NCBI GenBank assembly: GCA_007376195.1
Contig: VMFT01000009.1
Coordinates: 11,067 to 75,066, forward strand
Direction of reading: 5' to 3'
Source of the DNA: Parcubacteria group bacterium Gr01-1014_29
Lineage (GTDB): Bacteria; Patescibacteriota; Minisyncoccia; Ryanbacterales; 2-02-FULL-48-12
DNA length: 64,000 bases
Every line of letters begins with the position of its first letter. Position 1 is the first letter of the stretch. Position numbers: made by a program. Below, piece after piece: positions 36,001 through 42,000 of the stretch.

Positions 36001-39000
36001 ATGCGCGGATCCTGGAAACTCGCAACAACCTCACGCGTGTTGTCGGTTGATCCGTCATCCACAACAATAAGCTCCCAGTCGCTGTGTGTTTGCGTACGCA
36101 CGCTTTCTATTGCCCGCCCCATTATGTAGGCGCGGTTATATGTCGGGAGGACAATACTGATGGTAGGCTTAGTATTCAACAGCATCTTTACCGCTCAAGA
36201 GTTCTACGGACTCCACATGATCCTGTTTGCGGAGTGTATCAACGAGTGTTGTTATGAGATTTTCGTTTTTGAGCCTAATACCGATAGTGTATTCGCGAAG
36301 TTGGTTGGGCAGGGTTTTTAAGTTGATGACGTGGTGTGTTACCGTATTGTTTCGCAACGTTTCATGTGTTGACGGGTCGAACGGAAAACGTGCCACAACA
36401 AGCAAGAGATGTCCTCCCCGCACAGCGGAGCCAAAGTTTATCTTGTCGAAAAAGAGGATGATAAGAGAAATCAAGATGGTACCGATGCCAGCGACGATGT
36501 AGTTGTTGGTCCCGCCGGCTACCCCAATGGCGAGCGCAAAAAAGATAAACGCAATATCGCGCGTTTCTTTGACTATTGTTCGGAAGCGGATGAGCGAAAA
36601 CGCGCCCAACAGCGCAAACGCTCCCACAATGTTTTCGGCGATGACCATCATGATGACGGTGGCAATGAGCCCCATCAATATCATGGTGAAGATAAATGAC
36701 TGCGCGTAAGAAAACGAGCGGTGCGTTTTTTTGTATACCCACGCGATGATGAGTTCCAAAACGAGGACGAATAAAATATTAAAAATAACGACCGCCGCGT
36801 TTACTTCTGTTTCCGCAAGATATAAAAAGTTTTCCACCGTTTTATATTATCTTGGTAATGGATTATACACCCGGAGTGTCTCCAGCGAGTTTGTGTATTT
36901 GGAGAATGATGCGCGCTCGAGATTATACCGCCGCAGTATGTCTTTAAACCAGGAAGGGAGTATGGTGCCGAATTTTACCTCCATAACGGTAACACCCGGG
37001 TGCACGTTTTTCATAGCTGGAGTGTAGCACAAATCGTGCGAAAAACAAGTCTCAATGGCACTGTCGAATGTTACGCGAAAATCAGCAGATCCGCGCGCTA
37101 CTAACGGTGCTCGTTTATAACGTACGACAAGATTCGGTTTCATCTGTTCGCGGATGATGGTATATATAATATCTCGCGCGCGGTCAGTTTTATTGCAATG
37201 ACGCAGAAGCGCGGTTCGCGATCCGTTAAGCAACATAGGGTATTCTTCCAGCGAAAGAAGTATGCGGCTTTTTGCGACGCGCATGTTGTATTTCGCTTTT
37301 TTCTCAAACCAGATTTCCGGTGTCTTTTCTGTGAGTGTTGGCGTATAAATACGCACGCGTATTTTTTTTCGCCAAAGAAACCCGCCCGCTTTTTCGTAAT
37401 AATCACCAAGTACAGGAGAATCAAAATATAAGCTTGTTACTGGATATGAGTTCTCGGGTCTCTGTTCAGCTATAAAGTCCGGCTGCATACCGTAGCGTAA
37501 AACAAGTGTCTTAATGCCCGCCGCAAGTGCGTCGGGCATAGGATATTTGAATTCGTAACGGTTGAATTGTTGGGCTTGGTTTGTCATTTGAGCTTTTGCA
37601 TTTGGATTTATTTTGTCAATGGATATTCTTCCTCCGCAAATGTGATTGGCAGTTCGCCTTCATCCAGCCACTGGCGGATCTTTTCAAAGTTTGTAATAAT
37701 AGTTGAGCGGTAAAATTCTGTTTCGGAATAGAACGTTGCGGTCGGAGGGAGTTTCGCGGTATCGGCTATAACGTCTTTTTCTATGGATGCAACAACACGA
37801 TCATAGTAGGCAAGATCGTCCTCCAAATTTTTCTGATTATTAACATACGCGCGAGTGCGCGTCTCAAATTCGCGCCGAAACGGTTCATGCTGTAAAATTC
37901 TGTTTTTCAGACGATTGTCAAATACTTCAAATGTTTCTCGCAGTTCTTTTGTTGTCATGTCAAATCCAATCGGCTCAAATTTATCACGGGTGGGGTCATA
38001 ATAAAAATTTAAATTGCCAGTATTTTGTTGATGGTAATCTCGAGAAAGCAAAGATTCGAGCATCCACCCGTACATTTTTTCCATGTCAAGAATATGCGGA
38101 AGTTTGGCGGCAAATTCTTCGTCAGTTGTTTCCGATGTCGTGAAAAGAAAACGTTCTAATGCTTCTCGGTACGGGTTTTGTTCAATGTGGATGCGCGGTG
38201 TCCAATAGTCAAGAGAGCTGCGCTTCAAGAAATCAGGGCGGTTTGCGTTCTCAATATCTTTTTCAGTGAACAGTTCGCCGATCGCGCGATTATTGCGCTC
38301 AAGAAATGCTAGTCCCCATTCTTCAATCTCCAGATACACACCGAGGTCACGCCCATTGAGCTTCAATGTTACAAAGTCAACCTTGGGGGTCAAGACGCCA
38401 AATTTTTGCATGCGGTATGCTTCCAATGACGCGACTGCCCATGAGCGATCTTCGGGAAGGAGCAGGCGGTGTGTTGTTGTTTCTTTGCCCGTATCATCAA
38501 GCAACGTTATGTTCATTGATTTTTTGCGCGCGCTCCAATGATTTAAAATGAGGCCGCGGTATCGTATGCGCGCATCTGATTCAACGCCATCTTGATTAAA
38601 ATCACCGCGTACAGAAAACTTATATTCTTCCGTGAGCTCCGGTTTGCCCCCCTCAATAGGCGGGAGAGCATCGAGGAGTTTTTTGAGGTCCGCGCGAACG
38701 AGAGTAAGTTCATATACGGGAAGGTTGGATGTATAGAACCATGTGCGTGGCAGATAATAGAGATCTGTTACTTTTTTGAGCGAGCGCCACGTTGGTGAAA
38801 AATGCCGGAAGAACGGACGCGGATTTTGGTATATAATATCAAGCCGCCAGATGAATGTATCCCCGTATGATGAGTCGTTGCTTTGACCGTTCACAAAGCT
38901 ATAGGTAACAAAACCTGCTCCTATTGCAAGGGTTATGACGGCAATATATATAAAAACTTTGTTAGAGTTGCTTTTCACGGGTGTTTAGGATTGTCTGAAA

Positions 39001-42000
39001 CAGCGAATATAAATCAGCCGGTAGTATTTTTTCAAAGGAGGGCTTGTTGGCAGTATTTCCATCTCCTTGATAAGTATGTTCTATAACGCTATTCGTAATG
39101 TGAATAGTTGAATATTCATCTGTCTGTATGTTCTCGCTGTTTGCCCACAATGTGCTTCCCGAGACAGCGGCGTATCCGCCTTCAATAAAGTGCGGTTTTT
39201 TGCGATAGAGTCCGATGCCAGTTTCATTGGCAAGAAGAAGAGAATCTTTGATAACAGCGCGCGAGCGGTCTTTTACCGCAATGCCGTAGGCACACCCGAT
39301 GATGGTGTTTTTTTCCAAGGTTGGGTGCGACGCTTCTCCCACGCTGATGCCTTTGTCACCGCATAAGGCTATACTATTTTCACGTATGGTGATATCGGAG
39401 AAGCTCAAATCCATCGCGTCCCCACCGCTGTTGCGGAATGTATTTTTTTCAAAGAGAGAGTCCGCTTTTGCAAAATCGATGTCTATGCCGTCTGAACTTG
39501 TATCTATGAATGTCGTATTCGCGATATGCGCGCGGCCGCCATAGATGTGAATACCGTCGTCGGCGTGGGAGCGCGCGATTGACCCTTGCGTGAAATCAAG
39601 GTCGGATGAACGCAAGTTCAGGGAGCCGCTGAAATAAAGGCCCGCAAATGTTGCGTCGTTGCCGTCTTGAATATGTGTGTGGCGAAATGTGTTTGTGCCG
39701 GATGCGCGGATAATAGCAATTACACCCCATGGTTTTTTTTGATCAAGCGCTTGTGCTTTTATGGGGTGTTGCATTGTGCCGTTGCTTTCCACACGACTAT
39801 AGGAGATGAGAGAAACACCTGGGCCAAACAGTAGTGTTGCGCCCGGGTCGATGCGGAGCGTATACCTTTCAGGAATAACTACGGTATTTCGAAATATATG
39901 TGTTCCTGCCGAAAGCGCGAATGTGTTGCTGGGGCGAAGGCTAAATTGTGGATGGTTGCGGAGAAATTCCTCTACTGGTGTTCCGTGGGCAAGGAACGAA
40001 TTTTTATAGAGAGACGCGTCAAATTTACCGGAGATTGGATATGACTCGTCGGCGTATTCAAAAGCAACGGCACCGGTTTCATCAAGCATGCGTTTGAGCT
40101 TGTCATAATTGTTTTCTATGATGTCTCGCTCCACAGCAATACGTGCGAGGGTTGCAGCAGATGTCTGTATTTTTTTTGTGTCGCTCAAAATATCTTTGCG
40201 GATAGCCCGGAAAGTCTCATCGTAAAAGGCGAGGGCGCGTTCTTTGTGCGACAAGTCGGCAAGATAGGTTTTCAGCGCTTCGGAAAGTGTCTTGTTAAAC
40301 GTCGGTATCTGCATAGTGCGGTTTACGAGGCGGTTGATTTTGAGAGAAAGGGTATCTGCGTCAATACTTACGAGCGCCGAATCAAAAAGAACAGGCTCAA
40401 GTTTATCGGTGGCGGGGTTAAGGTACCAGTTTTGGTTCGCGACATTGCCTTGATGAAAATTGCCGGAGAGAGCTGTTATGACAAGCCAACGGTAATATAT
40501 ATCCATATCAATAATATGTGGAAGCTCTTTTTCAAACACCTCATCAGGAGCGCTTGCTACTAAGTCAAGGAAGTATGCAAGAGTGTCCATGGATGCCGAT
40601 GGTGTTTCAGCAGCAAAGCGGTTTTCCCAGATGTGGAGAGAATCAGGGCGAAAGAGATCAACATCGCGGATGTCAAGGTTGAGGTTTGAAAACAGAGGGC
40701 CGAGTCCGCGTCCGTTGCGCTCGAGCAGGGACTCTTCCCAACCTTCAATAAGATAGTATATCCCCATATCCACGTTGTTTATGCCGAGGCGCGCATAGGA
40801 AACCTGTGGGCTCAAAAGACCGAGTTCTTCCGCGCGCATGGCATTCATGGCAGCGAATATCCAGCCCTTGTCTTCCGGTATGAAAAACCGCATAGTTTCG
40901 CGTGCACCATACGGTGTTTCTTCCGGCAAGTTAACCTGCCATGATTTTTTTACAGCGGTCCAGTGGTTTGGCGAGACGCCGCGAACGCGTATTTTTGCAT
41001 CCTCCGTATAGTAGTCACCCCCCGACGCCGGGGTCGGGGCAGGCGCGCGGAATTTTCCCTTCACCGATTTTTTGTATTCTTCCCACATGGCGGCCACGCG
41101 CGGGTAGTCGGGCAGTGTATTAAACAGAGTTTCCTTATCTCGTTTGGATAGGGTAATTTCATATATGGGGAGATCGGATTCTCGTATCGTGTAAAAGAAT
41201 ACATACGGAATATCAATGACGCGTTTGATAGAGCGCCATGTGGGGGCAAAGTGCCGTATGAGCGGATTTGGGTTTGAAGATGTAATATCAAGCCGATTAA
41301 TGGTCCCCGGCCACATCAAAAAAGCAGCTCCCGTAAGAAGCAGTACAATACCAACACCAAGAGCGATTTTATGTGCTGTTTTGGAAAAAAGTACGTTCAT
41401 TATGATATTAGCCGCAAGCGTAGCACAGTATCTTGTGTAATACTATACTTTATAACGCATATCAATCTTTACCTAGCATGATTTGTTGTCATAACTGACT
41501 AGACACTGAGTGTCTAGTCAGTTAGTGTCTAGTCAGTTATGTTCTGCGGGTATATTTTACAAGTATAGATAAGTAAGCAGAGCATGATTGAACAACCTTC
41601 CTCCCACGCGCGCCCAGACTGCTCCCCATATACCGAATACCGGTATCAAAATAAACATCGCTAGTATTTGCACAAGCGGCGCTCCTATACTGAATATATA
41701 TATTTTTTTTAAATTTCCTTCCGCTTTAAGAGTTGTGCCGAACATACTCAAAGGAAGTGATATCAGCGATAGCGCAAGTACTTGGGTAAACGGTACGGCT
41801 TGGGTGTACTGCGGAAACAAGATGTCAAACAACAGCGGTGCGGCTAGCACGTATGCGCCAACTGCGCCGGCGGTAAAGAGTGATGCGCGGAACAGCTTTT
41901 TTGGGAGCGATGAACGCAGAGCGGCGCGGGCTTGGGGTGTCGCGGTCTTTTCGGCAATCTTTGGCATGCTGACCGTACCTGCGGTGCCAATGATGCTTTT

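Follow-up and report, generated by a model that had tools for sequence, protein, structure and literature searches.

A 64,000-nucleotide (nt) stretch of DNA from the groundwater Parcubacteria group bacterium Gr01-1014_29, referred to here as the window, carries four adjacent genes encoding two CotH-family proteins, a VTC-domain protein and a DUF4956 membrane protein, and it raises the question of what kinase-fold proteins and a predicted polyphosphate polymerase do together among genes for a surface glycan. Our answer is that the module is probably a functional accessory of surface-glycan production, a reading to which we assign a probability of about 0.75. All window coordinates count from the window start. 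Gene calls were taken from an open reading frame (ORF) map, and families were assigned with Pfam, using the curated gathering scores as cut-offs.

The CotH, VTC and DUF4956 genes belong to an eight-gene glycan unit

Eight co-directional ORFs on the minus strand, all with matches above the Pfam gathering score, form one glycan unit at 32673-42825 (Table 1). The first gene encodes a flippase and is divergent from the PMT_2 gene at 42838; the last encodes a GT2 glycosyltransferase and is convergent with a plus-strand epimerase gene ending at 32651. The Polysacc_synt match of the flippase (58.4 bits; cut-off 28.2) supplies the unit with the Wzx-type flippase of a Wzx/Wzy pathway, and the DUF6798 protein might serve as a polymerase or a GT-C-like component. 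No Bac_transf or Glycos_transf_4 match was found among the scanned window ORFs, which are a subset of all window ORFs. The four module genes were present where the original prediction had placed them, each over its gathering score. Its family assignments (DUF4956, VTC, two CotH proteins, and a beta-helix fused to the longer CotH) were all right by Pfam, as was its reading of the flanking genes as a flippase, a GT2, a polytopic protein of 612 amino acids (aa) and a GT2 ending at 32673.

The junctions downstream from the long CotH gene are, in order, -17, +20, +9, -17, approximately +8 and +10 nt. A spacer of 156 nt (41401-41556) lies between the flippase gene and the long CotH gene. Tight packing thus holds for seven genes, with a looser link to the flippase in this genome; the same junction in a 59%-identical relative (locus L001) is 41 nt. 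An earlier description of the whole operon as tightly packed with overlaps of 8-17 nt thus stands for the compactness of seven genes, but the overlaps are mixed with short gaps and the flippase lies 156 nt away.

The VTC-domain protein retains the mapped tunnel residues of Vtc4

The VTC-domain protein opens with MTNQAQQFNRYEFKYPM and matches 234 of the 235 positions of the Pfam VTC profile. A family profile built from 41 homologs was aligned with the yeast Vtc4 catalytic domain (PDB 3G3Q; E = 1.2e-20), with a chain-to-protein numbering offset of 185 that was checked on R264/R266. In this alignment K14 corresponds to Vtc4 K200, R77/R79 to R264/R266, Y157/R159 to Y359/R361, E203/K205 to E426/K428, and S229-K230 to S457-K458. 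Further tunnel positions lie on neighboring strands (E95/K97, K106/R108, and R171), and conservation of the mapped tunnel positions among the 41 homologs is complete or at least 90%. Vtc4 K200, R264, R266, E426 and S457-K458 are said to be the tunnel residues of the active subunit, as reportedly described by Hothorn et al. in 2009. The expectation that the tunnel catalytic residues would be kept is therefore confirmed, every mapped Vtc4 residue being present. With the non-catalytic Vtc2/3 chains, the same profile matched only at positions 49-192.

No hydrophobic segment was found in the VTC-domain protein, which is a single domain with neither SPX nor a fused DUF202-type transmembrane domain. 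The best 150 of 16,451 VTC family representatives are all 211-346 aa long, and the family comprises more than 10,000 clusters at 50% identity (E <= 1e-10), eukaryotic Vtc proteins included. We predict a soluble, cytoplasmic protein of the triphosphate-tunnel (TTM) fold that would act as a polyphosphate polymerase. The eukaryotic VTC complex (Vtc4; PDB 3G3Q, 7YTJ, 8I6V) has the same TTM catalytic domain with all mapped tunnel residues, and genetic coupling to a membrane protein in the Parcubacteria unit suggests that synthesis takes place at the membrane, as in that complex. The eukaryotic complex differs in possessing SPX and a fused DUF202-type membrane domain, whereas the partner here is the MgtC-like DUF4956 protein.

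The DUF4956 protein has an MgtC-type architecture

The DUF4956 protein is 100% identical to NCBI G01um101429_463. It has 334 homologs, with PF16316 present in all matches listed, and is the best conserved of the module proteins by sequence comparison: it is 81% identical to its homolog on the 116,548-bp contig of L001, compared with 59% for the VTC-domain protein and 61% for the long CotH. An AlphaFold2 (AF2) model with a predicted local distance difference test (pLDDT) score of 78 contains five helices (aa 2-132) followed by a beta-alpha-beta-beta-alpha-beta, ACT-like domain (aa 143-215). The invariant core, aa 69-113, includes the loop R84-F-R86-x3-K90-x-T92-x-D94 between two short helices, and the C-terminal E221-Y222 is also invariant. 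Two loops (aa 36-45 and 84-94) are rich in Lys and Arg, the loops in alternation with them being neutral or acidic, and the positive-inside rule, applied by eye, places the two basic loops and the ACT-like domain in the cytoplasm.

A membrane domain followed by an ACT-like C terminus is the MgtC-type architecture, and the protein matches MgtC/SapB colinearly, with scores under the thresholds (PF02308, 19.6 against 31.4 bits; NCBIfam PRK09977, 21.3 against 214 bits). Unlike MgtC/SapB/YhiD proteins, DUF4956 falls under the cut-offs of that family, has its own Pfam family and is paired with VTC. In Salmonella, MgtC adjusts phosphate or energy status.

The ACT-like domain, a small-ligand-binding fold, would also suit a different role for the VTC-domain protein, in which another TTM activity (triphosphatase, polyphosphatase or nucleotide cyclase) signals to DUF4956 and the donor for CotH comes from elsewhere. 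TTM enzymes catalyze diverse reactions on triphosphate substrates (PMC4641920), and in the literature we found no report of polyphosphate synthesis by any bacterial VTC-domain protein. We nevertheless consider this role improbable: the best family match is to the VTC model, the Vtc4-specific residues are conserved down to the S457-K458 equivalent, and the Vtc2/3 chains are matched by the profile over part of its length.

The CotH paralogs are anchored proteins with a histidine at the catalytic aspartate position

The long and short CotH proteins are paralogous (34% identity over 467 residues, E = 5e-87), and the long one is 100% identical to NCBI G01um101429_466. It consists of an anchor (aa 9-34), a CotH domain (approximately aa 137-424) and a beta-helix (approximately aa 487-770); the anchor of the short paralog spans aa 6-30. 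Each has a single hydrophobic segment, N-terminal and preceded by Lys, from which we infer that the CotH catalytic domains are signal-anchored and face outward. Directly after the anchor both paralogs carry an invariant juxtamembrane motif, RLDxxxxNPxPxxRHFxPTWRSxKK (aa 36-63 of the long CotH), that has no counterpart in Bacillus CotH and through which the proteins may touch DUF4956 or the membrane.

A profile of Patescibacteria CotH proteins matched B. cereus CotH (5JD9) with E = 4.9e-24. Characterized CotH proteins are protein kinases, and in B. subtilis CotH mutation of D228 or D251 inactivates the kinase, D228Q being inactive (PMC7821199). D228 and D251 correspond to D224 and D247 of B. 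cereus, with a spacing of 23 residues in both. At the position of the catalytic Asp (D224/D228), both window paralogs have His316, and the canonical Asp is gone. A conserved Trp 11 residues before this position, in both families and without gaps, fixes the alignment locally. The His is present in 23 of 24 unique CotH domains from Patescibacteria-type loci, the remaining domain having Asn, and Asp occupies the position in 28 of 34 CotH domains from other phyla. Asn322 (B. cereus N229) is found in all 24 Patescibacteria-type domains and Asp340 (B. cereus D247, B. subtilis D251) in 21 of them, both residues being present in the two window paralogs, which also keep the KKS Lys and the Glu. Patescibacteria CotH proteins have in addition an invariant Asn319 and a one-residue loop insertion. 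The original prediction had counted a loss of the kinase catalytic residues against itself; in this respect it fails in part, as the catalytic Asp is His316 in both.

Conservation of the His across the clade looks like altered chemistry rather than decay. We know of no precedent for a conserved Asp-to-His change in CotH; the replacement might go with a change of acceptor or donor, or with a route through phosphohistidine. The fold family is shared with Bacillus CotH (5JD9) and with the Fam20 secretory kinases, among them the xylose kinase Fam20B, and these kinases' Lys and Glu, their catalytic-loop Asn and their metal-binding Asp are conserved here. The predicted extracytoplasmic site of action is also that of the Fam20 enzymes. 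Bacillus CotH differs in having Asp (D228) where the window paralogs have His, in lacking the anchor and the juxtamembrane motif, and in coming from a spore-former, whereas the host here is non-sporulating.

The beta-helix of the long CotH resembles polysaccharide-acting enzymes

An AF2 model of aa 455-812 of the long CotH (pLDDT 95) is an all-beta, right-handed solenoid. The best Foldseek matches among solved structures are the mannuronan C5-epimerases AlgG and AlgE4, NosD, alginate lyases and the Vibrio polysaccharide lyase RbmB, with probability 1.0, E of approximately 1e-5, TM-scores of 0.45-0.56 and identities of 10-14%. Invariant rungs include ADDGIH (aa 613-618), IDIDF, GGDAxDLSFS, CGDKGxSVGE, GCxYGIAVKD and YRKKPHF, and are rich in invariant Asp, Lys, His and Cys. 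Such invariant charged residues on the rungs suggest that the beta-helix may be an enzyme and not a passive binding module. Its proposed role as a carbohydrate-binding part is accordingly upheld as to the type of fold, which is one that acts on polysaccharides, but is put in doubt by the invariant Asp, Lys, His and Cys. The AlgG/AlgE epimerases, PL6 alginate lyases and RbmB share with it the parallel beta-helix and conserved charged residues on successive rungs; at 10-14% identity and fused here to CotH, it is likened to them by fold rather than by catalytic motif. The ADDGIH rung may be a lead to the catalytic motif of a particular enzyme class, such as the DPH(D/E) motif of epimerases. Membership of the NosD copper-maturation family was rejected (TIGR04247, 22.5 against 300 bits; no nos genes nearby).

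These features would also suit a module in which CotH is a pseudokinase serving for binding or as a scaffold, the beta-helix is an epimerase, lyase or hydrolase that trims the glycan, and VTC and DUF4956 take part in ordinary intracellular polyphosphate metabolism and are merely co-regulated. The canonical catalytic Asp is lost, the nearest folds of the beta-helix are enzymes, and in a Chloroflexota locus (L057) the beta-helix is a separate ORF. However, the frequencies of the His (23/24), Asn322 (24/24) and Asp340 (21/24) indicate active-site selection and not decay, the short paralog without a beta-helix is kept in the close relatives L001 and L011, and co-regulation by itself would hardly account for a three-gene order that is fixed across phyla. 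We therefore regard a pseudokinase module as quite unlikely.

The CotH-VTC-DUF4956 triad recurs in diverse glycan loci

Loci were surveyed with one genome per species, giving 57 loci from Patescibacteria, Ignavibacteriaceae, Fusobacterium, Lachnospiraceae, Spirochaetales, Muribaculaceae, Peribacillus, Chloroflexota and others. The pattern scan used a 16-sequence alignment, the 41-sequence alignment being too diverse, and a scan of genome contigs with the VTC protein alone gave no relative. CotH genes in the loci were identified by an iterative search from B. cereus CotH and by Pfam scans of neighbors. An apparent restriction of the triad to this lineage was rejected as an artefact of a Patescibacteria-only CotH hidden Markov model, which missed Firmicutes CotH genes. 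DUF4956 directly follows VTC in 53 of the 57 loci; CotH is present in 49 and flanks the VTC-DUF4956 pair in 45. Intergenic gaps within the triad are typically less than 40 nt. Patescibacteria loci are arranged CotH-VTC-DUF4956, and most of the others VTC-DUF4956-CotH.

In the closest sizeable relative (L001/L007; 59% VTC identity), the order flippase, CotH-beta-helix, CotH, VTC, DUF4956, DUF6798, GT2 is kept. A Polysacc_synt gene adjoins the triad in L003 as well as in L001. A third CotH paralog is encoded in L001/L007 (612-1967), between Oxidored_FMN and NTP_transferase genes, and is missing from the corresponding 394-nt gap of the window (44994-45386). Two other arrangements were noted: in the Chloroflexota locus L057 (5612-6931, 8210-9781), the separate beta-helix ORF adjoins VTC and CotH lies further upstream, and in Taylorbacteria L022 (7240-11028) the order is VTC-DUF4956-CotH-beta-helix. 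Both indicate that the parts are modular.

The three nearest ORFs on each side of the triad in 19 Patescibacteria loci encode mostly methyltransferases, GT1/GT4 and GT2 glycosyltransferases, sugar-nucleotide enzymes, Polysacc_synt proteins (5) and PMT_2 proteins (5). Among the two sizeable ORFs closest to the triad on either side in loci outside the Patescibacteria are MBOAT (16), AlgX-type acetyltransferases (9), and GT2/cellulose-synthase-like proteins with PilZ (9 and 8), in addition to PelG, GH114 and GGDEF. The arrangement MBOAT - AlgX-like - VTC - DUF4956 - CotH - GT2/PilZ is recurrent in loci L028-L060 (Lachnospiraceae, Fusobacterium, Stomatobaculum and others) and looks like an operon for an O-acetylated exopolysaccharide controlled by cyclic di-GMP, neither Pel nor Wzx. 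In these other phyla the fusion partners of CotH include FN3, CHB_HEX_C_1 and Fn3_assoc. The co-occurrence of the triad with glycan genes that was originally proposed thus recurs both in relatives and in other phyla, in different operon types. Recurrence in unrelated operon types indicates that the triad is a mobile, self-contained module that has been repeatedly inserted into exopolysaccharide and surface-glycan operons.

Some triads in Ryanbacteria and Sungbacteria adjoin other pathways for phosphorus-containing surface polymers, namely phosphonate genes and TagF-like CDP-glycerol glycerophosphotransferase genes (Table 1). On a TARA contig, a gene with a weak match to CDP-alcohol phosphatidyltransferase comes after the triad, as do sugar-nucleotide genes.

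The wide recurrence also bears on whether the four genes could be unrelated to the flanking glycan genes, through accidental adjacency or transcription of their own. The 156-nt spacer, with its strong hairpin, ahead of the long CotH gene and the existence of one standalone triad outside any glycan locus would agree with this. Against it stand the 17-nt overlap of the DUF4956 stop with the start of the downstream GT2 gene, the order flippase-CotH-CotH-VTC-DUF4956-DUF6798-GT2 maintained at 59% identity, and the repeated glycan context in independent architectures, and we give an accidental association hardly any chance.

Relation to the accessory genes of Pel loci

Contiguous accessory genes encoding CotH, a 'poly-phosphate polymerase', DUF4956 and DUF4832 have been described next to Gram-positive pelDEADAFG, and a regulatory protein-kinase role was suggested for the accessory genes (Whitfield et al. 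2020, PMC7112168). In C. perfringens NELoc-2 the same genes adjoin a chitin-synthase-like glycosyltransferase (PMC2879425). A 2025 study of Streptococcus intermedius, in which each triad gene was deleted (SIR_1594-1592), stated that no such three-gene arrangement had been found away from Pel loci (PMC12345266); this restriction is contradicted by the triads outside Pel among the loci collected here. The literature that we found otherwise treats VTC as eukaryotic, the sole bacterial comment concerning the Pel-linked genes, with function undefined, and a 2023 review of VTC distribution surveyed eukaryotes only (PMC10657179). No biochemical function assigned to the triad was found in the literature. 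The original prediction of a candidate undescribed system is correct in that the triad is without a defined function, but its position beside exopolysaccharide genes had already been reported (PMC7112168, PMC12345266).

The Gram-positive Pel accessory genes resemble the window module in that the three families are adjacent and contiguous with an exopolysaccharide operon, with a secreted or external CotH, a cytoplasmic VTC and a DUF4956 membrane protein with an ACT-like C terminus. They differ in their order, VTC-DUF4956-CotH, and in the FN3 fusion, whereas the window has CotH-VTC-DUF4956 with a duplicated CotH and a beta-helix fusion. The pel context contrasts with a flippase/GT2/DUF6798 unit in a Patescibacteria glycan island, and the catalytic Asp with the His found here. 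No match to PelG, GH114 or DUF4832 was detected in the eight unit genes or in the 30 flanking window ORFs scanned. New in the present analysis are the Wzx-type Patescibacteria context, the CotH duplication, the beta-helix fusion, the clade-wide Asp-to-His swap, and a triad that is pan-bacterial and not restricted to Pel.

A possible trans-envelope polyphosphate relay

With VTC in the cytoplasm and CotH anchored outside, as predicted, VTC cannot act directly on an exported glycan, and a trans-membrane step is required. The proposal that the module phosphorylates or polyphosphorylates the surface glycan consequently keeps its family, tunnel and glycan-context parts and loses direct action by the cytoplasmic VTC. 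As the mechanism we tentatively favor, at somewhat less than even odds, a polyphosphate relay across the envelope, each step of which we infer. VTC would make polyphosphate from ATP at the membrane. DUF4956 would anchor VTC and conduct or present the polyphosphate to the outer face, a step that would parallel the coupling of synthesis and translocation in the eukaryotic VTC complex, using an unrelated membrane part. The external CotH, in a compartment without ATP, would take polyphosphate as its phosphoanhydride donor and attach phosphate or polyphosphate to the glycan that this operon exports; an associated surface protein is another possible acceptor. The beta-helix (FN3, CHB_HEX or Fn3_assoc elsewhere) would grip or process the polymer, and the substitution of His for Asp in Patescibacteria suggests a modified phosphotransfer chemistry. 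The relay makes use of all three parts: an enzyme inside, kinase folds outside, and a conserved membrane protein. We also count for it that deletion of the CotH or DUF4956 homolog of S. intermedius alters Pel level and aggregation, the latter being reduced in both mutants (PMC12345266).

Several points weigh against the relay. The 156-nt spacer, with its hairpin, parts the flippase from the module, and the catalytic Asp is missing from both CotH paralogs. CotH enzymes are known as ATP-dependent protein kinases, and we know of no CotH that uses polyphosphate or acts on sugars. The DUF4956 model gave no fold match to the transmembrane helices or channel of Vtc proteins, and no VTC-DUF4956 fusion that would attest to coupling was found among the best 150 VTC representatives. 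One Magasanikbacteria triad lies among housekeeping genes, with no glycan neighbors. Deletion of the S. intermedius VTC homolog gave no aggregation phenotype, and the Pel level was lower without the CotH homolog and higher without the DUF4956 homolog (PMC12345266); these phenotypes do not fit a simple linear pathway.

The opposite shifts in Pel amount, which occur without Pel being abolished (PMC12345266), could instead point to a regulatory module, in which CotH as a Ser/Thr kinase acts on a matrix or biosynthetic protein to tune output, VTC and DUF4956 adjust phosphate or energy, and the glycan is left unmodified. The MgtC-like character of DUF4956 would agree with such regulation, as would the protein-kinase activity of the characterized CotH proteins (PMC7821199). 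We consider a regulatory module unlikely: the CotH domains lie outside, away from ATP and from the cytoplasmic glycosyltransferases, the Patescibacteria clade is without the catalytic Asp, and the fusions to a polysaccharide-type beta-helix, CHB_HEX_C_1 and Fn3_assoc indicate a glycan partner. It would also leave the near-constant presence of a polyphosphate-polymerase fold unexplained.

The polyphosphate relay may be taken further, to a widespread bacterial trans-envelope polyphosphate system with a Vtc4-like polymerase, an MgtC-like DUF4956 conduit and membrane-anchored CotH proteins that draw phosphate from the exported chain, or join the chain itself, to surface glycans, operating in Patescibacteria via the His and possibly through phosphohistidine. 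In this general form it is doubtful.

The flippase-CotH spacer and the surrounding glycan island

Within the 156-nt spacer, the 15-mer AACTGACTAGACACT has 3 matches, compared with 0.06 expected, and is found nowhere else in the window. From these copies a perfect 16-bp hairpin is built, its 16-nt arms being 100% complementary, and the spacer RNA fold has an energy of -54.6 kcal/mol (z = -7.5). The spacer matched no Rfam family at E <= 1. The hairpin may be a terminator, an attenuator or an operator.

The window is largely a glycan-biosynthesis island, most scanned ORFs encoding glycan-related enzymes. These include sugar-nucleotide aminotransferases, dehydratases and epimerases, GT1 and GT2 glycosyltransferases, and C- and O-methyltransferases, in addition to the enzymes in Table 1. 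Such a share of glycan genes is unusually large for a small Patescibacteria genome and suggests a heavily modified surface glycan or protein glycosylation. PADLOC gave no anti-phage defense match, and the window contains no tRNA genes. Promoter-like sites (18, with 17.7 expected) and terminator-like sites (24, with 14.4 expected, mostly intragenic) provided no usable signal.

Table 1 Positions of the glycan-unit genes, sequence elements and neighboring genes of the window, and of two triad loci in relatives. Bit scores are given with the Pfam cut-off after 'vs'.
Feature	Sequence	Position	Strand	Remarks
Wzx-like flippase, Polysacc_synt	Window	41557-42825	-	PF01943, 58.4 bits vs 28.2; 422 aa from ATG at 42825; many hydrophobic segments
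Long CotH, 812 aa	Window	38962-41400	-	PF08757, 56.5 bits vs 23.8; Beta_helix PF13229, 70.5 vs 25.9; NosD, 42.9 bits
Short CotH, 456 aa	Window	37608-38978	-	PF08757, 56.2 bits vs 23.8; without beta-helix
VTC-domain protein, 246 aa	Window	36847-37587	-	PF09359, 128.7 bits vs 23; E = 3.5e-37
DUF4956 membrane protein, 222 aa	Window	36169-36837	-	PF16316, 53.2 bits vs 30.6
GT2 glycosyltransferase, 305 aa	Window	35268-36185	-	Glycos_transf_2, E = 6e-37; 17-nt overlap with DUF4956 stop
Polytopic DUF6798 membrane protein, ~613 aa	Window	33418-35259	-	DUF6798, 36.2 bits vs 26.9; >10 hydrophobic segments
GT2 glycosyltransferase, 244 aa	Window	32673-33407	-	Glycos_transf_2, E = 1.4e-25; last gene of unit
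His316 codon, long CotH	Window	40453-40455	-	
His316 codon, short CotH	Window	38031-38033	-	
Juxtamembrane motif, short CotH	Window	~38763-38846	-	aa 45-72
Hairpin/repeat element	Window	41490-41541		Three copies of AACTGACTAGACACT, two direct and one inverted
PMT_2 (GT-C, ArnT-like) membrane glycosyltransferases, four paralogs	Window	20628-22202, 23811-25205, 42838-44205, 51052-52437		
Carbamoyltransferase	Window	16794-18617		
Sugar C-methyltransferase	Window	30322-31584		
2-Oxoglutarate (2OG)-Fe(II) oxygenase	Window	27932-28744		
CotH-VTC-DUF4956-flippase	Ryanbacteria, L003/L004	3710-8215		By TagF-like and phosphoenolpyruvate (PEP)-mutase (phosphonate) genes
CotH-beta-helix-VTC-DUF4956	Sungbacteria, L005	9519-12725		Followed by two TagF-like genes

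Significance for bacterial surface biology

The module is not a categorically new system; it sharpens a widespread question about bacterial VTC, DUF4956 and extracytoplasmic CotH proteins. The predicted topology of the triad is split, with the polymerase inside and the kinase folds outside, and in one large lineage the Asp of the kinase fold has been swapped for a conserved His. The question can be addressed experimentally, as cultured carriers of the triad are present among the loci (Peribacillus acanthi, Butyrivibrio, Oribacterium) and S. intermedius mutants exist. If the general trans-envelope polyphosphate system is real, bacterial VTC-domain and DUF4956 proteins would gain their first function. 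The relay, if true, would account for how kinase-fold enzymes outside the cytoplasm obtain their power without ATP, and it would represent a new route by which phosphate or polyphosphate is placed onto bacterial surfaces. It would then bear on biofilm matrices, on the interaction of Streptococcus and Clostridium perfringens with their hosts, and on the surface of the episymbiotic Patescibacteria.

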